Shown one piece after another: positions 2,457 to 47,037 of a stretch of 53,153 nt of DNA. The notes under the pieces are model-generated. The model worked only from the letters and a program-made list of their open reading frames with translations, made no database searches and was not told the origin of the DNA. The DNA is from Methanosarcinaceae archaeon (GTDB lineage Archaea > Halobacteriota > Methanosarcinia > Methanosarcinales > Methanosarcinaceae): contig JBQVLY010000001.1 in the NCBI GenBank assembly GCA_052361065.1, positions 1-53,153 of the forward strand. The letters are read 5' to 3'. A program made the translations under genes and the position numbers. The stretch's first letter is position 1; every line of letters begins with the position of its first letter.

Positions 2457-2652
2457 TGGGGCTGGTGAGATTTGAACTCACGATCGACGGGTCTCTCCGA
2501 ATCACTGTCATTTCAACAGCATTCTATGTGAGCACATATCAGTGCTCCAACGGTTCCTCACTGACCTGCCCCGTCGGGTAGATCTCAGTAGACCCGTTGT
2601 TCATCATTTATCCGCTGGAGCCCATCGCCATGCCGGGCTAGGCCACAGCCCC
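2457..2652 (-). tRNA. tRNA-Trp(CCA) with a 122-nt intron at the canonical 37/38 position
   Basis: Hand-folded. Acceptor GGGGCTG/CAGCCCC, T-arm GTGAG-TTCAAAT-CTCAC, anticodon stem ATGGG/CCCGT, loop CTCCAG|A. 5' exon runs 2652->2615, 3' exon 2492->2457. No CCA is encoded. Confidence 0.9.
2493..2614 (-). ncRNA. box C/D guide RNA embedded in the tRNA-Trp intron
   Basis: Read in order: ATGATGA (box C), 12 nt, CTGA (D'), GTGAGGA (C'-like), 12 nt, CTGA (D). Both 12-nt guides are complementary to the host pre-tRNA (see finding). Confidence 0.75.
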
Positions 2653-17176: not shown

Positions 17177-18712
17177 ATGGAAACAAGACAGCAAAAGGCA
17201 GATGATATGAGTATTGGTTTTATTTCGTATGAGTTCCCACCAAAAGTTTTTGGAGGGGTTGGGGTTCATGTGAGCGAACTTACAAGGCATCTTGCTAAGA
17301 GTATCGGGCAGGTGCATGTGTTTACATCATATGTTGAAGGATTAAATGACCAGAAAGTAGACGGTGTGTATGTACACAGGTCACCTAAACCTTTAGTACC
17401 GGAATCAAATCGTTCCAGCAATATCTATAAGAGAATAACATCAAATTGTAACATACCAGGGATAATGGATAGGTACATTTCCAGTGAAAAAACGGGCATG
17501 GTGTGTTCGCATGGGGGATTGAAACAAATGGCTGCAGCAGAAGCAAAAAAAAGTACCCATTTGCCCCTGTTAATGACTACCCGGAGTGTTGCCTCCGGCA
17601 AATTCGATTCAGATGAATTGATCGGTGTTAGTGTTATGGAGCAAGATATGGCGGGTGTGGCAGGCAGTCACATTGCAGTATCAAAATCCATGCAAATGGA
17701 ATGTAGCCAGGAATTTGGTGTAGAAGTGTTGAATGGCCGGAAAGTCAAAAGTGTATATGATCAAAGGTCACCTGAACTGTTAGTACCGACATCGAACTAT
17801 TCTAAAAAGGATCTTGAAAGAATAATAAACAATATTAACGTGGCAAAAATGGTGAATACAAACCTTTCGGATTCAAAACTTGACCTGTTACATTCACACG
17901 GGGGATTGATCCAGATGGCTGCAGCAGAAGCAAAAAAAAGTACCCATTTGCCCCTGGTTATGACGGCTCACAGTACCGAGATCAACAGGGTCATGCCAGA
18001 CAATTTAAGCATTCTTATGGAACAAAATGTTATGGACATGGTAGACAGGTTCATTGCAGTATCTAACTCAATACGAAAGGAACTGAACCGGACTTTTGGT
18101 ATTGGTTATAACAAGATCACGGTAATACCAAACGGCGTGAATACTACAATCTTCAAGCATCAGAATACTGATGATACACGCAGGAAATACCAACTTGATA
18201 ACAGGTTTATCGTGTTGTTTGTTGGAAGGGATGATCCGCAAAAAGGAGTGGGGAATCTGATCAAAGCCGTGAAGGATCTTGCCGTGCAGATACCTGAAAT
18301 TATGCTTGTCATGGTTGGCCAGCGGGATATTTATTCTGATAAACATATTCTCTGCCTCCCACGTGTCAGCAGAAGTGAACTTGTCAAATTATATTCCCTT
18401 TCCGATGTGTTCGTGCTGCCCAGTGTTTATGAACCGTTTGGTATTGTTCTCTTAGAGGCTATGGCATGCGAAACCCCGTGTATTGGATTTAGGATTGGTG
18501 GCATACCTGATATTATAGACCATGACAGGACAGGGCTTTTAGTAGAGCCGGGAAGTTATGAGGGGCTTTCTGATGCGATCGCCAGATTGTACCATAATCC
18601 TGAAAAACGTCAAAGAATGGGCAAAAATGGAAGGGATAGGGTAATTTCATTGTTTGACTGGAATTCTATCTCGGCGAAGACCATTGAAGTGTACCATAAG
18701 GTATTGAATTAA
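17177..18712 (+). CDS. GT4-family (GT-B) glycosyltransferase with an internal partial duplication
   Basis: N-terminal GGVGVHVSEL, C-terminal EPFGIVLLEAMACETP E-x7-E region, RBS AAGGGGGA. A segment of ~129 codons is duplicated in frame. Confidence 0.85.
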   Translation: METRQQKADDMSIGFISYEFPPKVFGGVGVHVSELTRHLAKSIGQVHVFTSYVEGLNDQKVDGVYVHRSPKPLVPESNRSSNIYKRITSNCNIPGIMDRYISSEKTGMVCSHGGLKQMAAAEAKKSTHLPLLMTTRSVASGKFDSDELIGVSVMEQDMAGVAGSHIAVSKSMQMECSQEFGVEVLNGRKVKSVYDQRSPELLVPTSNYSKKDLERIINNINVAKMVNTNLSDSKLDLLHSHGGLIQMAAAEAKKSTHLPLVMTAHSTEINRVMPDNLSILMEQNVMDMVDRFIAVSNSIRKELNRTFGIGYNKITVIPNGVNTTIFKHQNTDDTRRKYQLDNRFIVLFVGRDDPQKGVGNLIKAVKDLAVQIPEIMLVMVGQRDIYSDKHILCLPRVSRSELVKLYSLSDVFVLPSVYEPFGIVLLEAMACETPCIGFRIGGIPDIIDHDRTGLLVEPGSYEGLSDAIARLYHNPEKRQRMGKNGRDRVISLFDWNSISAKTIEVYHKVLN

Positions 18713-19071
18713 ATTTGTCCGGTCAAACGTTGCAACACACACTCAGCCGTAGCAGATATGTGGGTATAATGATTAATTTGGAGAGGTAAATTCATGGTTT
18801 TTTTTCAAGTTTGGGGACATCCTAAACTTATACTCTTTGACCGACATATACAACGACAGTAATATAGTCTTAATTATACGTAGAAAAGCGTATACCCTCA
18901 GGTATGTTTAACAAAAGATTTTTTTTGATAAGTATCCCGGTTGTGCGGGGTTTGCAAATCATATGATTATAAATCCGAGGTCTTACATGCGCCCCTGCGT
19001 CCCAGGGATAAATAAACTCATTCAACATATCACATAGAACAAGTATAGAATGATAAATTTAGAAGCAAACT

Positions 19072-19650
19072 TCATAAAATTAGTTGAATATCAGGTAGAT
19101 TATTTAATATACACTCGTATTTTTTACATTTTAATAATCTTCTCACAATATTTGGTAATGGCTCCGGCCATATTTCAAGAAGATCTGCTTCGCCTTTTAA
19201 TTTTACTGTAAAGGCAAGATGCTCAACAGGTGGATTAAATTGTGCATTAATATCTTCTTTATTGCCTCTTGGATCAATACGGTACCATCCAATCTTAGGT
19301 AGAAATACTGCAGTCAAACCATGAAGACAAAAAGGAGGGCCATTTTTACCTATGCTTAATCGCTGATAGCATAAACCAGAAGGGATTTTATTTGCTCTCA
19401 AAAAAGCTGCTAACAAATGACTTTTTGCATAACAGAAGCCAGTTTTATTTTCCAATACTTCAGATGCTTTCAAGGTCACCGGGTTCATTTGAAAATCAGA
19501 ACTATGATATATTTCATCTCTAACCCATTCAAAACAACTTTTTGCAATTTCAATTGGATTATCCAAATTATTTGATAATTCAAGAGCTTGTTCCAAGACT
19601 AAAGGATGATGCCAGTCAATTATATCTGTTGATTTTAGATATACTTGCAT
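19072..19650 (-). CDS. transglutaminase-like cysteine protease family protein
   Basis: 192 aa. GFCYAKSHLLAAFLRANKIPSGLCY (catalytic Cys region), HGLTAVFLPKIGWYRIDPRG (His/Asp region). Confidence 0.75.
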   Translation of the reverse strand: MQVYLKSTDIIDWHHPLVLEQALELSNNLDNPIEIAKSCFEWVRDEIYHSSDFQMNPVTLKASEVLENKTGFCYAKSHLLAAFLRANKIPSGLCYQRLSIGKNGPPFCLHGLTAVFLPKIGWYRIDPRGNKEDINAQFNPPVEHLAFTVKLKGEADLLEIWPEPLPNIVRRLLKCKKYECILNNLPDIQLIL

Positions 19651-19826
19651 TTGCTATCTCCATTGAATACCAAAACCTTGTACTTTTCTTTTGGATGTGC
19701 GCCTATTCTGGAATTTGAAAGGATTGATTCAAAATCACACTATTTGACCTGGCATTTATTCCCCATCCTGCAGTCAACGACTCCGGGCTACAAGCCCGAA
19801 GCATCAAGGCGGGCGCATGAGGATTT

Positions 19827-20501
19827 CTATCGCTCTTCATCGCATTGGTTTCTGTCAAAAACGGGGGGCTGAGATGCCACAGAGGAGGTTGAAGCCACTG
19901 ATGGTGCACTTTCAGCATCTGTTTTTTCTTTGAGTTCAGGTAATCCAATTCTGCTTAAATAATTCGAAAAACGTTGGGACAAAGATTCTCGAAAAAGCAT
20001 ATTAATAGTAACTAAATAATGCTCCACATACATCATATATAGAGCATCTCTTGGAATAGTGTAGTAATGTTTAAAATCAATTACTAATCGCGGTACTTGC
20101 AATGCTTGATTTTGTTCTAAATAATGGAATCTTGTATTGTTTTGCTGTAAAATCTTATTATAACTATCACCACCCCATTTGTTCATTTTCAATCCATTGG
20201 ATTTTAAGTGATCACCATTCTTGAATTTTTCTGCATTGTAAGCAGGGCATGCCAAAACGGTGGGCAGATATTTATCATGTTTTGCAGCGGCTGGTTCCGA
20301 TCTGTTGTTGAAGTCCCATTCAAGATCACAATCTTGAGTCATTACGATGATATACGGCAGACTTGCTTCAGAAATTTTATAATCACCTGGTGTATCATCT
20401 ATATTCCAATCAATAACATCTATATTTCGAAGTATATCTCCCTGACAGACTCGTTTCGAAGTATGCTTTACATACATTGAATCAATCTTGCTTAGAGACA
20501 T
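19827..20501 (-). CDS. hypothetical protein (CQGDIL ... IVMTQDCDL motif), third gene of an overlapping triplet
   Basis: 224-aa ORF. The start overlaps the upstream 56-aa ORF by 20 nt. I recognise no family. The Ser/Ala/Pro-rich C-terminal tail differs from the rest of the protein. Confidence 0.6.
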   Translation of the reverse strand: MSLSKIDSMYVKHTSKRVCQGDILRNIDVIDWNIDDTPGDYKISEASLPYIIVMTQDCDLEWDFNNRSEPAAAKHDKYLPTVLACPAYNAEKFKNGDHLKSNGLKMNKWGGDSYNKILQQNNTRFHYLEQNQALQVPRLVIDFKHYYTIPRDALYMMYVEHYLVTINMLFRESLSQRFSNYLSRIGLPELKEKTDAESAPSVASTSSVASQPPVFDRNQCDEER

Positions 20502-20649
20502 ATCCCAAAACCTTTTTTTTCACTTCCGTCTTCTCATATTTTTCAAAATCAATATCTACATTGAAAGGATATGCCTCTTCTTTTTTTTGGGTTTTTGGTG
20601 CAAATGTTCCTACTTCGCCAAAGTAATCATCTGTTTTGTTATAAGACAT
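20482..20649 (-). CDS. small hypothetical protein (55 aa, Lys/Glu-rich)
   Basis: ATG 20649 lies 9 nt after GGGAG and overlaps the upstream gene's stop by 11 nt. Its own stop lies inside the next gene's start region. The 100-aa ORF-track form runs through the upstream gene and is unlikely. Confidence 0.45.
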   Translation of the reverse strand: MSYNKTDDYFGEVGTFAPKTQKKEEAYPFNVDIDFEKYEKTEVKKKVLGYVSKQD

Positions 20650-21382
20650 TATTTTCATCTCCCATACGCTGTAAGTTCTCTGTATAGGTGCTCTGTTCAA
20701 ATAAGTTTTTAATTTCTTCATGCAGTATATTAATTTGACCAATGATAGACGAAATATCGCTTTCATTTTTTGAATAACAATCATAATCGAGTAAAAATTC
20801 CTTCTTTGCTATTGGATTTGGATACTCGCTATTAAACCACCCATACTGGAATCTGACATCATAATCAGACTTATTTAATTCCATGACCCCAACATGCCTT
20901 GATAGTTCACTTCGATCATTGATGAAATTAAGACTACAAATAAGTGGTTCTTTAATAAGTTCAGTCCAATCAAATGGATTTCCTTCATCAATAATTATCT
21001 GATTTATATAACGAAGTCCTGTCTTCGATACTTTTATAGATGAGCTCTGCTCTCCCAAATTTTGAATTACTCTTTGTACAAGCACTTTGAACTCGTTAAA
21101 ATTATTATATTTTTTAAGGTCAAAAATAATTGCACTTGGTTCTAAAATTAATGAGTTATTTGTTGCATTATTGTGAAGTAAAAATGATTTATACCGCCGC
21201 TCTTGTGTGGTTTTTTGAGCTTGGTCAATAGTCATTTCTACAGATACTATATCTCGAGTTTCGAACTCGGGAAGAATATCTGAAACAGCTCCCTTTATGT
21301 CATCCAATACCTGCTGAGAACGATCTATTTCGCCTAAAAAGTCCAACCTTAATATTACTTGCTTTAAAAAATTGTCTGGCAT
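20639..21382 (-). CDS. hypothetical protein, possibly TIGR04255-like
   Basis: 247 aa. The N-terminal FLKQVILRLDF and central TGLRYINQI resemble, from memory, the uncharacterised TIGR04255 family. This is unverified. Confidence 0.6.
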   Translation of the reverse strand: MPDNFLKQVILRLDFLGEIDRSQQVLDDIKGAVSDILPEFETRDIVSVEMTIDQAQKTTQERRYKSFLLHNNATNNSLILEPSAIIFDLKKYNNFNEFKVLVQRVIQNLGEQSSSIKVSKTGLRYINQIIIDEGNPFDWTELIKEPLICSLNFINDRSELSRHVGVMELNKSDYDVRFQYGWFNSEYPNPIAKKEFLLDYDCYSKNESDISSIIGQINILHEEIKNLFEQSTYTENLQRMGDENNVL

Positions 21383-21601
21383 ATCATTCCTCTATGGTAA
21401 CTTACTGTAATATTAACGTATATACACCTATCTATCTAATCTCAATAATCAGCTACAAATCCACTTCCGTCCATTATATTTTAGACAAAATGGTTTTTCT
21501 GGTTCAAAATATCTCAACGGATGCGCGAGAACGAGCGCTTAGGAAATAACCATTCCCGTACTAAATAGTACAGGGTCTTCATATGCTTAAATACAATCAA
21601 T

Positions 21602-23830
21602 TCATTTTCCATCCTTCTCAACCAACTCCGCATCCGTAATAGCTACCCTTGCCGTGTACTCATCCGGATCATAAACCTCACATTCCTTGATTTTAATCCT
21701 TTTCTTATACATCGGAGCATCCAGCACAAAACTCTCAAACTCCCCACCCTCTCCTGAGATATTCAATCCGATCTTCTCATTCAACCGCACAAGCTTATCA
21801 ACATCTTTTTCCGTAATCCTGCGCCCGACCCAACTCTTATCTAACCCATAGGCAGCAATGCTACTGAAAATAAACTCATACCCGAGCTTTAGCAAATCCC
21901 GCATCTCAGTTTCCTGGTCAATATGCCATAGCGGCGAAAAGACCTTAAGACCAAGCTCGTTGCATACCCGCTCAATTCTCTCTCTCTGGTAATTCGAATA
22001 CAAGGCTCCTGTGACCACGCCTTCAATACCATACTTCCCTTTCGCCCGCATGATCGCGCTCTTCATATCCAGAAGCTCGGCTTCCTTCTCGCCTTTTGTA
22101 ACCTGTTCAATGATAGGGAAACCCATAGCTTGCGCCTGCAGGCGGGCAAGGTATATGTTTGGTGTATGGAACATATAAGAATCAGGATTCTCACTCCTTA
22201 TGGTTATCAGGCACTCAATGGAATAGTTCTGCTCCTGCATGATCTGCAGGGCATAATTGCTGTCTTTTCCGGAACTGAACAGGACACCAAGTTTCAGGTT
22301 TGGCTGCGAATAGAATTGTTTCAGGTACTCTGTCTTTGAATCACATCCGGTTTTCTTTGCCAGTTTTGCAATTGCCTTATCGAACCTGCTGCCGTACTGA
22401 GCCGCCTGTTTCCTGCGCTCTGTAAACTCATGCGGAATACCAATATTTTCACCAACCATGCGCAGGATGAGCTTATTCTGATTCTGCTCATGATCACTAT
22501 CAATCCCAGTTCCAATCCCGGTTTCAATATCAATCTTATATCGTGGCGGGATCTTGAGACAGTATTCCACCAACCTTTTATCAAGATACGGTACACGAAG
22601 CTCGATACTGTTGTTCATGGAAACAACATCATCCCTGTACGTATTCTTCTCATATATCTTCAGTATATCTACATAACAATCCCTGTTGACATCGGTCGAG
22701 TGCCTGTGCCTGTCATATCCTGCAAACAACTCATCAGCACCCGACCCGGAGAACATGACCCGGATATCATCTTCTGCTGCTGCTTTGCAGGCGGCATACA
22801 TTGTCAGCCCGACACCGACCTTGGGAACATTTGTATCTTCGATAAGCGGAACCACAGTCTTGAGATAATCTTGAACCCCAAGGATGTCAATCTCTCTTAC
22901 TTTGAGTGAAAATCCCAACTCATAAGCCACCTTTTTTGCATACCGGACATCCGGTGACTCTACTTCCCCCTTCAATCCAACGGTATAACAGGTGAAATCC
23001 ACAAATTGCTGCTTTCCAAGCTGCTTACACATATATGTGAGAATGGTAGAATCTACACCACCGGAGAACAGGATACCAAACGGTTCATTAGGGATACGAA
23101 TGGAGACTGCATCGTAAAGGAGTTTTTCAACATCCGCGCGGATGGTCTCAACAGGCATTTCATGTTCCGGCATTATGGAAAAGAATTCGCGGCTGAATTT
23201 TGTGGTAGTGCCATCCTCTATGTCATAACACAAAATCTCGCGCGGGTTCAGCTCTTTAATGGAAAGAAAATTGACAGCATCAAGAGCCTTTTTCTCAGAT
23301 GCAAATGCAAAACCGGAATGTGTACTATACCATATGGGTTTTATACCAAGTACATCACGGATAATGTACACTCTATCATTGAGCCAGTATGCAAAAGAAT
23401 ATACTCCGATGATCTCACGAAGTGTGTTATCTATTATACGGATGATATCCGGGGGGGTTTCACTTTTAATTTTGTCGGAAATTGGTTTAATCTTTTTCTC
23501 GATCAGTTGTATTAAAAGATCAGAGTCATTTTTCGCATCTATATCATATTTTTCGCTCAATTTTTCCCAGTTGTATATCTCACAATTAGCAACTATCCGA
23601 CCCATATACACGATCGGCTGGGGTACGAAATTTACCATGGAATGCAGTGTGTGGCCAAGTATGTTTATGTCTTTTGGAATTGAAAACGAATCAATATCAT
23701 TCGTATAATCCAGCCAATCCGCACCGCAGACACCCGCACCATCCTTGCCCCGTTTTTTGAGGATAGCAAGAGCTCTGTTTGTATATTTGGCTGCATCCTT
23801 TGTATTAAAAAAACCTGTAATTCCGCACAT
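21602..23830 (-). CDS. asparagine synthetase (glutamine-hydrolysing)-like protein fused to a Dph6/MJ0570-type ATP pyrophosphatase domain
   Basis: 742 aa. MCGITGF Ntn-amidotransferase start, first PP-loop LFSGGVDST, SGSGADELFAGY. After ~residue 515 come a second PP-loop LFSSGKDS and the GEGGEFESFVLDAP motif typical of the diphthine-ammonia ligase family. Confidence 0.8.
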   Translation of the reverse strand: MCGITGFFNTKDAAKYTNRALAILKKRGKDGAGVCGADWLDYTNDIDSFSIPKDINILGHTLHSMVNFVPQPIVYMGRIVANCEIYNWEKLSEKYDIDAKNDSDLLIQLIEKKIKPISDKIKSETPPDIIRIIDNTLREIIGVYSFAYWLNDRVYIIRDVLGIKPIWYSTHSGFAFASEKKALDAVNFLSIKELNPREILCYDIEDGTTTKFSREFFSIMPEHEMPVETIRADVEKLLYDAVSIRIPNEPFGILFSGGVDSTILTYMCKQLGKQQFVDFTCYTVGLKGEVESPDVRYAKKVAYELGFSLKVREIDILGVQDYLKTVVPLIEDTNVPKVGVGLTMYAACKAAAEDDIRVMFSGSGADELFAGYDRHRHSTDVNRDCYVDILKIYEKNTYRDDVVSMNNSIELRVPYLDKRLVEYCLKIPPRYKIDIETGIGTGIDSDHEQNQNKLILRMVGENIGIPHEFTERRKQAAQYGSRFDKAIAKLAKKTGCDSKTEYLKQFYSQPNLKLGVLFSSGKDSNYALQIMQEQNYSIECLITIRSENPDSYMFHTPNIYLARLQAQAMGFPIIEQVTKGEKEAELLDMKSAIMRAKGKYGIEGVVTGALYSNYQRERIERVCNELGLKVFSPLWHIDQETEMRDLLKLGYEFIFSSIAAYGLDKSWVGRRITEKDVDKLVRLNEKIGLNISGEGGEFESFVLDAPMYKKRIKIKECEVYDPDEYTARVAITDAELVEKDGK

Positions 23831-44100: not shown

Positions 44101-45636
44101 TTAAAAATCAATTGTATTTATTAATGTGATCTTTTTCCGGTTTGATTGATACACCATTTCAGGTGTTACGGTTTTCCCGTTAACTGTGACCGCCTTTCCA
44201 CTTGTCAGTTCCCCGAACATAGGTCCTGAAGGGATACCAAATTTGCGGGCAAGTTCCGGGTTGAATTTTTTATCGATAATATACAGTATATTCTCATCTG
44301 GAATATATTTGATTTCATAACGTTCTTTTAGTATTTTAATGCATTCATTTGTGAGTTCCTGCGTTACGACCCTCGCGCAATCGTCATCGATGGTGAAAAT
44401 CACATTTGCAATTATTCCATTTGAGCGTTCAATATATGCAATGTTGTAATTGTCCAAAAAAGCCCTGACACGTTTCATATCTACAGTTTCGGTTTCCTGC
44501 AATAATTCCCGATCGAACCTGAAAGCCTTAATCTCAGGATACTTACATCCTCTGTGTGGTAGACCAAGCATCAGGATCTCATTTTTCATGCCATCCGTAA
44601 TTTTCACACGTCCGTTCTGGCAAAAATCATTTGCCTTTTGGCGCACCTGTTTAAAAAATTCCCATGGAATTGCATCCATCTCCCTGATATCCCCTTCCCG
44701 TAACACCTCATATCCAAGTTCTTCAACGATCTTACCTATTCGATCACGTTCCCTGGCAGGCATGGATTTGCGGTCAAAATATATAAAATCGGCATATGAG
44801 TTATCAAATGCCTGTTTGATCAGTTCTTTGTCGATATGCTGCAACTGGTAATTAGGAAAATTGTGACCAAACGTAATATTTGTCTCAAACAAAAGTTTCG
44901 ACTGGCGCGGTGCATAATGCCCTCCGCCAAAACCCATGGCAACAGGAACTTCCCTGTTGTCAAGGGACATAATAGCACTTGCAATAATTTCCCCGGGAAC
45001 CGGATCATTCCATTGTGTTTCATTACTTCCGATCTCAACATACACTGACGGGATATTGAGATGCGTAGGACCATGGTGAGTTGATTCCATCGAAACAGTG
45101 TAATTAGTTGTTTTTGCCAGCATCTGCAAAGTCTTAAGAAGCGAACGCAGTGCATAAGGTGCCGCTTTTGCAAATTCCTGCGCCCGTCCCCCAAATTCAG
45201 CATCCGTCACATTTCCTGTGAAATGTGCGGTTAGAAGCTTGCGTCCATCATTACTTTTGTGTTTTGATGCAAAAATTATGATTTTCGCTGGCAGACCGCA
45301 ATTGATTAACTTTTCATCGATCCCATCCTGATATATGTGATATTTATCGACCTCAACTATCCTGAAGTTGTCAAACTCATATATCTGGCACACATCAGGA
45401 CAACCATCACATGTGCATCTTATCCAGATCCATTCATGCATGGACAGGAGATGATTTTTGATATTCTGGCTTGCACTGTCAAGAGTTGAGCAGATGATTG
45501 TTATCTTTGGCTCCACTGCTTCTTTTATAATCTCATCAACAGTTATATTTTCGGACCCCTTTTCTTTAAACAATCGTCCAGCTACCTCGAATATCTTGTT
45601 TTTGGTCTCTATTTTCTTTTTTTCACGCAGGGACAT
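44101..45636 (-). CDS. dtdA: D-aminoacyl-tRNA deacylase, archaeal type (DtdA), with N- and C-terminal extensions
   Basis: The core ([16 protein letters not shown] ... MESTHHGPT ... VYVEIGS) matches the DtdA family. The first 40 codons look like a truncated TetR HTH. In-frame GTG at 45516 is an alternative start. Confidence 0.75.
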
Positions 45637-45739
45637 GTTACCATCTTCTTAACATATAGTGACTATGGGTCAAATATGACTATAGTCACATATTGGTCAT
45701 TTTGGAGTTTAGTAAAAGTTTTATTCAGGAATGAGATTT

Positions 45740-46174
45740 CTAAAATTTAAGTATATTTTTAACTATCTTATAAATGTAAGTAGAAGGGTTGCTTTCGATG
45801 CTGAATATATTTATTTTATTGCTTTCATGCAAGCTCTTTAACTTTTTTGCATTTTTAATTGCTGTTTCTCTGCGACTTAATAATATCTCAAAATAGTCTC
45901 CATTTTTCAGATATTCCGGAATATATTTTTTTAGCCTATTTATTAGGTCGTGATTATTCAATGGATGCCCATAGTATTCATAATGCAAAAGATACCACAT
46001 CTCAAAAGAAGGATTTGACATGCCGATTTTTACACTTTTACCTGCATTTTTACAGGCACTAATAATCTGGGTGTTGATGTTGATGTTGCCATTGCAATCA
46101 AAAACACACCAAATATCGTCACCGTTTTTGAGATCAAGATCGTATTTTTTAATTTGACCTTTAGCAAATTTCAC
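45740..46174 (-). pseudogene. RloB-like (Toprim/OLD-type) protein, N-terminally truncated or disrupted
   Basis: DDIWCVFDCNG and KIGMSNPSFEMWYLLHYEYY match the RloB C-terminal signature. There is no proper start: the frame stays open 108 nt upstream of the GTG at 46174 into an inverted repeat. No RloA ATPase partner is present. Confidence 0.6.
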
Positions 46175-46296
46175 AAGATTTGCAGGGTCAGTATATTTTG
46201 TGTTAGGTGTTTCTATATTACTTTCCGCACATCTCGAAACCGCTTTAATCGTAATTAAATCAAACCAATTTCCCGTTGTGGGGCAAGATTAACTGA

Positions 46297-46503
46297 TTAT
46301 TCTTTTACAATTATAACATATGCTTTCCAACCCCTGTATTTTTTAGGCGCGTCAATTTTTGCAGAGTTGCCGAAAGGTGTGATCTTCTTTTCATAAATCA
46401 ATTCAACCTGTTCTCGTAAGATAAAGTCTTCAGCTTTAACCTCGACTTTTCTCATATTACTGATATCCTTGGATATCCTTAAATACTTTGTGTTATCATT
46501 CAA
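46297..46503 (-). CDS. small AbrB/SpoVT-like 'transposon-encoded protein' (DUF2080-like)
   Basis: 68 aa. ITPFGNSAKIDAPKKYRGWKAYVIIV resembles the archaeal DUF2080 family that accompanies Methanosarcina IS elements (from memory). Confidence 0.55.
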   Translation of the reverse strand: MNDNTKYLRISKDISNMRKVEVKAEDFILREQVELIYEKKITPFGNSAKIDAPKKYRGWKAYVIIVKE

Positions 46504-46558
46504 ATAGGTGTGATATTATTGCACTTAATTTAGAAAATATATTGTAAATTAAATTCAC

Positions 46559-46900
46559 TTGACTCATGTGAACAATATGAATAATGCAGAATCACTTGAA
46601 TTCGAATCGGAAACAATAGACGCATTACCGATCATAAACCACTTCATCGATAGGTTAGGTCTCGATAAAATTATAGAATATGCCATGTCGTATGCGAATC
46701 CAAGCAACCGTATTATGCCATATATATCCGTTGACATGCTTTTGAGAAATATTATAATTGGTCGTTTACCGGTTAATGGATTCAAAAAATGTGTGTCACT
46801 TTTTGACTCCCATCTTTTTAATCTCAAGTCTGAACAAGTTGATTATATCAACGATAACATCATTGATAAGGCTCTTGAAAATTCTAAATCAACAGGATAA
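46559..46900 (+). pseudogene. IS4/IS1634-type transposase, N-terminal fragment only
   Basis: 113 aa. ALPIINHFIDRLGLDKII and INDNIIDKALE resemble the N-terminal (DUF4277-like) region of IS1634-family transposases. The DDE catalytic part is absent. Confidence 0.5.
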
Positions 46901-46938
46901 AATACGATTAAAAGCCAGATGAGATGTGCGGAAAGTAA

Positions 46939-47037
46939 GATGAATATATAGGTATGATCAAATAATTGGAAGGAAAGGATGGAGAAAATTTATGTACATA
47001 AAGGCAATGTATGAGGAGGAAATTGTTCCTTATTTTC
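46939..47037 (-). repeat. ~100-bp dispersed repeat, copy 2 (inverted relative to copy 1)
   Basis: The reverse complement aligns with 36075-36178. It abuts the right inverted repeat of the IS remnant. Confidence 0.8.

Follow-up and report, generated by a model that had tools for sequence, protein, structure and literature searches.

Locus layout and base composition

The stretch examined here, called the window throughout, comprises the first 53,153 nucleotides (forward strand) of contig JBQVLY010000001.1 from the metagenome-assembled genome of a Methanosarcinaceae archaeon (assembly GCA_052361065.1). Between a family 4 glycosyltransferase (GT4) gene and a gene encoding an asparagine-synthase/diphthamide-synthase fusion (asnB-dph6), it carries four open reading frames (ORFs), here named A to D (Table 1). 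Genes A, B and C make up a self-contained, horizontally mobile cassette of 1.75 kb, referred to as ABC, which is discussed below as a possible tripartite toxin-antitoxin (TA) or abortive-infection-type module. The three genes are chained to one another: the start of B overlaps the stop codon (TAA) of A by 11 nt and the start of C overlaps the end of B by 20 nt. A GGGAG motif lies 9 nt 5' of the ATG of B, and an alternative in-frame ATG for this gene is possible at position 20658. Gene C is followed, after a spacer of 176 nt that includes a GC-rich hairpin, by gene D.

The positions, strand and overlaps of the four ORFs had been given in an earlier reading of the bare sequence, the original prediction, and were borne out by an ORF check. 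The patch had been judged AT-rich by eye, and computation agrees: the G+C content is 0.323 in A, 0.363 in C and 0.326 in D, whereas the 48 long ORFs of the window average 0.417 (standard deviation 0.045). Neither Rfam nor tRNA scans gave a match within or beside the cassette, the repeats found in 18600-21800 include no tandem array, and a search for terminal direct or inverted repeats around the cassette returned only short chance-like matches. The nearest relatives of the flanking asnB-dph6 gene in a metagenome scan (72 % and 65 % identity) are not syntenic with the window.

Table 1. Positions of the cassette, its elements and other features (window coordinates, or coordinates within the named locus for the A'-X-Y cassettes)
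Feature	Position	Strand	Description
Gene A	20639-21382	minus	ORF, 247 aa, TIGR04255 match
Gene B	20482-20649	minus	ORF, 55 aa; ATG at 20649, TGA stop 20484-20482
Gene C	19827-20501	minus	ORF, 224 aa; ATG at 20501
Gene D	19072-19650	minus	ORF, 192 aa, transglutaminase-like
Upstream non-coding region of the cassette	21383-21571	minus	conserved in archaeal copies (alignment, blastn)
Transferable unit	19801-21571	minus	A, B, C, upstream region and about 25 nt past the stop of C (blastn)
GGGAG motif	20663-20659		5' of the ATG of B
Promoter-like block	21450-21419		putative promoter
Second conserved upstream stretch	about 21500-21560		conserved in four archaeal copies
C-terminal tail of C	19827-19916		residues 196-224
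GC-rich hairpin	19802-19781		in the C-D spacer
A'-X-Y cassette	L086:4977-6821		three-gene operon
A'-X-Y cassette	L095:4001-5608		three-gene operon
A'-X-Y cassette	L097:4001-5671		three-gene operon
A'-X-Y cassette	L099:4001-5588		three-gene operon
GT4 glycosyltransferase gene	17177-18712	plus	511 aa
Second AT-rich patch	45500-47000		G+C content 0.30-0.34
RloB-like ORF	45743-46174		truncated
DUF4277 ORF	46559-46897		within the second AT-rich patch
tRNA (Rfam)	2457-2652	minus	spans 196 nt
C/D-box sRNA sR3 (Rfam)	2537-2611		59 bits, inside the tRNA

Recurrence and mobility of the A-B-C cassette

The A-B-C order extends well beyond the window. Of the 85 copies of C in relatives, 79 are immediately preceded by a TIGR04255 gene of the same orientation, from which a small ORF almost always separates them, and the six exceptions are due to upstream sequence missing at contig ends or to pseudogenes. 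The same order with overlaps is found in about 75 independent loci, in most of which the small ORF overlaps the start of C by 4-29 nt. Such recurrence means that the gene chain is not a product of chance, and it upholds the view that A, B and C belong together as a single, tightly coupled unit within a patch of foreign composition. In a collection of 185,579 species genomes (one genome per species) 157 relatives of C were found, in archaea and in about 18 bacterial phyla. The archaeal carriers are Methanosarcinales, Methanoperedens, ANME-2, Methanothrix, Methanobacteriales, Thermoplasmatales and Nanoarchaeota, while the bacterial ones include groups of the candidate phyla radiation (CPR), Proteobacteria, Planctomycetota, Chloroflexota, Bacteroidota and Nitrospirota. 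Cultured carriers are represented by Duganella flavida, Piscinibacter koreensis and Methylocystis iwaonis.

The limits of the cassette are sharp. Comparison of the window with the other loci by blastn gave matches of 88 % (L006), 84 % (L007), 83 % (L005) and 74 % (L001) identity, all confined to 19801-21571. This homology spans the three genes plus some 190 nt upstream, and stops at 21535-21571 on the upstream side and at 19801-19814 on the downstream side, whereas the flanking genes are different at every matching locus. In M. iwaonis the cassette is carried by a plasmid, where it adjoins an AbiJ-like gene and a recombinase; tblastn with C gave a single match among plasmids. Seven IMG/VR contigs also harbour the cassette, each with the A gene upstream of C. 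No match was obtained when C was compared with GenBank phages by tblastn, nor when viral contigs were scanned with the A alignment, from which the derived patterns were too specific. It is from the upstream TIGR04255 association, the blastn limits, the varied neighbours and the plasmid and viral copies that ABC is recognised as a three-gene mobile unit, with D separate.

Two metagenome-assembled genomes (MAGs) each contain two diverged ABC cassettes, namely MAG122 (L005 and L014, whose C proteins are 74 % and 55 % identical to that of the window) and Methanothrix CSMAG_2495 (L016 and L082). These pairs fit the paralogous, multi-copy habit that is typical of TA modules. Among the 135 immediate neighbours scored, a minority are of the defence type (SoFic twice, mad2, mad3 and mad8 two to three times each, AriA twice, and restriction-modification components) and integrases are present as well.

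The non-coding region ahead of A is part of what is conserved. A block of near-invariant columns in the alignment with five other archaeal copies, GATTATTGAGATTAGATAGATAGGTGTATATA, has a TATA-like hexamer some 40 nt ahead of the start codon of A and is, judging from its sequence, a putative promoter; a Shine-Dalgarno-like AGAGGAATGAT is present in the same upstream region. Further upstream, four archaeal copies (the window, L006, L011 and L001) share the conserved stretch CGCTCGTTCTCGCGCATCCGTTGAGATATTTTGAACCAGAAAAAC, which could be an operator, a leader or the end of the element.

Gene A, a TIGR04255 protein

The original prediction had been reminded by gene A of the TIGR04255 family, and the assignment proved to be secure: residues 1-240 align with positions 2-251 of the 252-position NCBIfam hidden Markov model (HMM) with 102.8 bits (E = 2.5e-29), far above the curated cut-off of 30 bits. 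The protein is acidic, with an isoelectric point (pI) of 4.7 compared to a median of 5.5 for A proteins, and has many invariant polar residues. Its AlphaFold2 (AF2) model (predicted local distance difference test score, pLDDT, 85.7; predicted template-modelling score, pTM, 0.84) consists of two beta-alpha-beta4-alpha repeats and thus suggests a duplicated topology like that of the TATA-binding protein (TBP). Foldseek against the PDB returned the TBP of M. jannaschii with a probability of 0.99, along with Med18/20 and CYTH, and against BFVD a viral putative TBP and the poxvirus protein VETF. A sequence-profile search of the PDB with A gave no match, TBP included. Compared with A, C is the better conserved protein in 68 of 73 loci, and identity values for the two proteins are correlated (r = 0.88). 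All three genes of the cassette are under purifying selection, with ratios of non-synonymous to synonymous substitution rates (dN/dS) of 0.14-0.39 in diverged pairs.

Gene B, a small protein with two conserved ends

That a 55-aa ORF wedged between two larger ones is a real gene is now well supported, by independent gene calls (in NCBI records, Logan records and a RefSeq plasmid), by a small ORF at the same position in about 75 loci, and by dN/dS values of 0.17-0.35 in diverged pairs (0.20-0.35 for the non-overlapping core). Its product varies from 38 to 115 aa across loci (median 61) and comprises a hypervariable Lys/Glu-rich middle flanked by two short conserved motifs. The N-terminal motif reads D/E-Y-F..S.T, while the C-terminal one, Y-x-K-[TSG]-K-x-[KR]-[RK]-x-[VI]-[ILV], consists of a Tyr and, after it, a strand in which basic and hydrophobic residues alternate. 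Of 69 aligned sequences, 65 have this Tyr and three more have Phe instead. The tail of the protein is basic (+4) and the remainder acidic. Searches with B in Pfam, NCBIfam, PHROGs and PADLOC gave no match.

Gene C, a predicted MazF-like protein

The C family is large. A word-indexed search returned 1231 homologues, none of which has a Pfam domain, and 1928 clusters at 50 % identity were collected at E <= 1e-3 among 1.84 billion representatives. Its members are almost all stand-alone proteins of about 190-200 aa. In the alignment, Q56, C58, D59, D63, D76, H98, R124, H126, D142, K144, H145, R177 and R184 are invariant. There is no match in NCBIfam, and the sole PHROGs match for B and C is that of C to phrog_4575 (function unknown) at 5e-6.

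An AF2 model of C computed with 32 homologues (pLDDT 78.9) was compared with the PDB by Foldseek: 46 of the 47 top matches are MazF proteins and the remaining one is CptN, with a best E value of 5e-4 and a probability of 1.0 for the best-ranked match. Template-modelling (TM) scores with the MazF structures, normalised to the target, range from 0.61 to 0.73. C is therefore predicted to adopt the SH3-type barrel fold of MazF/PemK, of which it would be a very divergent member. By our own reading the order of strands is colinear with that of MazF (GDI...; PYIIV for RPVLV; CPAY for VPCT; LVIDFKHY for the C-terminal strand), and this places Y88 at the position of the Thr in the R25/T48 pair of B. 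subtilis MazF. C has roughly double the length of MazF and is interrupted by a helical insertion at residues ~90-123. Residues 196-224 form a disordered low-complexity tail (…SAPSVASTSSVASQPPVFDRNQCDEER) that is common to the closest archaeal relatives only, most of the family having none.

A second cassette led by a TIGR04255 gene

A different tightly coupled three-gene operon led by a TIGR04255 gene, A'-X-Y, was encountered in metagenome contigs and in vir080, a virus of Methanobacteriales. No family is matched by the X proteins (130-160 aa); among the Y proteins (137-151 aa) an R...(D)Y motif is conserved. The HMM of the C family matches neither protein, and hhalign of both proteins of the virus copy against the C profile was negative. 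The Y profile matches the HEPN protein of Retron-Kva2 (E = 0.0011) and the HEPN protein 9xbd (E = 0.024) in the PDB and, weakly, the HEPN family of Pfam (E = 0.069). Since Y matches HEPN profiles and C is predicted to be MazF-like, TIGR04255 proteins appear to partner with two classic toxin folds.

A tripartite toxin-antitoxin or abortive-infection-type module?

We favour the reading that ABC is a tripartite module of the TA or abortive-infection type, with C as the effector, B as an antitoxin or tether and A as a sensor or regulator, and would give it about an even chance of being correct. It is supported by the association of C with A and the conservation pattern of the genes, by the pairing of TIGR04255 proteins with two toxin folds, by the precedents compared below, and by the arrangement of the genes, in that a small partner followed by an effector, with overlaps of 4-29 nt in most loci, matches the antitoxin-then-toxin order. 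The tight coupling had already been noted as the typical look of TA or defence modules, and this impression is strengthened by the predicted MazF-like fold of C, the sporadic cross-domain spread and the copies on a plasmid and viral contigs.

Gene order, coupling, mobility, modelled folds and purifying selection are observations, whereas we infer the toxicity of C, its neutralisation by B, what A does and any part in defence. C would be an effector with a catalytic set of its own, composed of invariant Cys, His, Lys, Arg and Asp residues, and would most likely cut RNA or otherwise arrest growth. B, presumably small, labile and largely disordered, would be translated just before C and would most likely keep it inactive by means of its two short motifs, either as an antitoxin proper or as a tether joining C to A. 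A, which changes faster than C yet in step with it, would most likely act as a sensor and/or transcriptional regulator, a role that B cannot fill. C would then be set free by a trigger, for example when a virus infects the cell, the element is lost or B is degraded.

A number of observations weigh against this reading. At the sequence level, C has no Pfam match at E <= 1, PF02452 included; a PDB profile search with it returns only MglA at an E value of 0.36, which is noise; and hhalign of its profile against a MazF alignment gives a probability of 0.05. The position of the catalytic Arg of MazF is occupied in C by L48-P49, according to the colinear reading, and with a median pI of 6.3 C proteins are close to neutral instead of basic. 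B has a basic tail where that of MazE is acidic, and the fold match of A to TBP is weak, with TM scores of only 0.30-0.39. In a few MAG loci (L004, L018 and L021) A is disrupted while B and C are seemingly intact; this counts against A being essential for neutralisation and not against the model as a whole. None of A, B, C and D matches PADLOC-DB v2.0.0 at E <= 1. Finally, the neighbours of the cassette are heterogeneous, those of the defence type being, by simple count, only a minority among tRNA synthetases and metabolic genes.

The same toxin module could be wired differently, with A neutralising C as a large antitoxin or immunity protein and B being only an accessory, e.g., a chaperone-addiction-like segment, an assembly factor or a translational-coupling spacer. 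The co-evolution of A and C is in keeping with such a scheme, as is the acidity of A, which could mask a nucleic-acid-binding surface, and B is indeed short and little conserved outside its two motifs. Yet B is under purifying selection, its C-terminal motif is nearly invariant across domains, and it occupies the classic antitoxin position immediately ahead of C. The loci in which A is broken beside intact B and C also speak against a neutralising A, although these are MAGs in which sequencing errors are possible. On balance we consider this wiring unlikely.

Another possibility is that ABC is no toxin system at all but an accessory complex for processing nucleic acids or peptides, in which C is a non-toxic Cys/His/Asp enzyme, perhaps acting on B as a substrate akin to ribosomally synthesised and post-translationally modified peptides, and A is a scaffold. 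By the colinear reading C lacks the catalytic Arg of MazF, and it has its own invariant set of QDCDL, His and Asp, B resembles a precursor peptide in that its ends are conserved and its middle is hypervariable, and the missing PADLOC match and the many housekeeping neighbours are also as one would expect. However, no conserved transporter, protease or modification enzyme is found nearby, and the middle of B is not consistently enriched in Cys, Ser or Thr. The rare, patchy distribution across domains, the multiple copies and the carriage by plasmid and viral contigs are a better fit for a selfish or defence element, and TIGR04255 proteins are also paired with a HEPN-like protein. A processing complex is quite improbable.

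That all four genes form one functional island or system, as first proposed, is hardly credible: D lies on the same strand just downstream of C and is equally AT-rich (its third-codon-position G+C of 0.19 is the lowest in the window), but D-like genes are absent beside ABC in all 84 related loci, the cassette's DNA homology to other copies does not reach D, and the hairpin parts C from D. The four-gene island was rejected on these grounds. D itself matches Transglut_core of Pfam at 6e-13, and in the 84 loci it has one match only, weak (E = 3e-5) and to a 544-aa protein that is unrelated. D was apparently acquired separately from the cassette next to it.

Comparison with known systems

Like MazEF and PemIK (Kis-Kid), the tripartite TA or abortive-infection-type module proposed here would combine a toxin predicted to have a MazF fold with a small, translationally coupled partner encoded immediately upstream, and the cassette is likewise mobile, patchily distributed and sometimes present in several copies. 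C, however, has no detectable sequence similarity to these toxins, is twice as long, contains the helical insertion and, in our alignment, does not conserve the catalytic Arg. B has no AbrB or ribbon-helix-helix (RHH) DNA-binding domain and its tail is basic instead of acidic, and a third gene, A, is obligatory.

Three-gene TA operons are known, for instance paaR2-paaA2-parE2, in which regulation is left to a separate first gene, the small antitoxin being devoid of a DNA-binding domain (PMC8630535). With the roles proposed here, the order of ABC would be the same, i.e., regulator, small protein, toxin. Other three-component TA systems are omega-epsilon-zeta and toxin-antitoxin-chaperone (TAC). 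ABC differs from all of them in that A is neither a helix-turn-helix (HTH) or RHH regulator nor a SecB chaperone but a 247-aa TIGR04255 protein with a predicted TBP-like fold, and the MazF-like fold predicted for C is unlike those of ParE and zeta.

A MazF-like domain split by an insertion has a precedent in GajC of type II Gabija, where five helices interrupt the domain; GajC is the presumed nuclease effector of this validated anti-phage system (PMC13069673). C resembles it in its predicted MazF-like fold broken by a helical insertion, a likeness at the level of described folds. GajC works with the UvrD-type helicase GajB, whereas ABC contains no helicase, and the PADLOC models of GajA and GajB match none of A, B, C and D. 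The endoribonucleases of ToxIN and CptIN, which have distant MazF-like folds and act in abortive infection, are also comparable, and CptN appears at rank 39 in the fold search with C. This match is weak (probability 0.66, TM score 0.27-0.37), and the antitoxins of such type III systems are repeat RNAs, unlike B, which is a protein under purifying selection.

Novelty and possible significance

The original prediction was unable to place A, B or C in a named system, and the PADLOC and literature searches agree with it. Nothing relevant was found in the literature searched for TIGR04255, IPR026349, CHP04255 or the pairing of MazF-like and TBP-like proteins, and the named members of the B and C families are all labelled 'hypothetical' or 'uncharacterised'. 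The cassette is probably undescribed, in that no PADLOC model, paper found or source annotation names it. In kind it is known, being best classed as a TA- or abortive-infection-like module with an effector of predicted MazF fold. Even if ABC were only a new tripartite TA system, it would help to annotate thousands of 'hypothetical proteins'.

The TIGR04255 family of NCBIfam, curated but devoid of an assigned function, is here linked with ABC and A'-X-Y, two different cassettes of three genes each, and through two putative effectors with toxin folds it gains a role that can be tested. A bolder and rather doubtful proposal is that TIGR04255 proteins define an unrecognised class of modular immune or addiction cassettes common to archaea and bacteria, in which a sensor with a TBP-like fold would be combined with interchangeable effectors of RNase folds (MazF-like in ABC, HEPN-like in A'-X-Y), with the two-motif protein B providing the coupling in ABC. 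If true, this would amount to a new principle of sensor-effector coupling, beyond one more toxin-antitoxin pair. The C family, with its strongly conserved candidate active site, may in turn be a new enzymatic version of the MazF-like fold. Few defence or TA modules are common, almost unchanged, to methanogens, anaerobic methanotrophic (ANME) archaea, CPR bacteria and Proteobacteria, and the cassette is small and easy to transplant and test.

Other features of the window

The GT4 gene that flanks the cassette shows an apparent internal duplication of the N-terminal Glyco_transf_4 region: the near-identical segments SHGGLKQMAAAEAKKSTHLPLLMTTRS and SHGGLIQMAAAEAKKSTHLPLVMTAHS lie about 150 residues apart and Pfam reports two stretches. 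Elsewhere in the window, a second AT-rich patch includes a truncated RloB-like ORF, which matches the C-terminal part of the RloB profile only, and an ORF with DUF4277, a domain that usually sits at the start of transposases. This patch could be what is left of another insertion, mobile or defence-related. Near the beginning of the window, Rfam places a C/D-box small RNA (sRNA), sR3, inside a tRNA of 196 nt that was not called by ARAGORN; this arrangement suggests that the tRNA has an intron encoding a C/D-box guide RNA.

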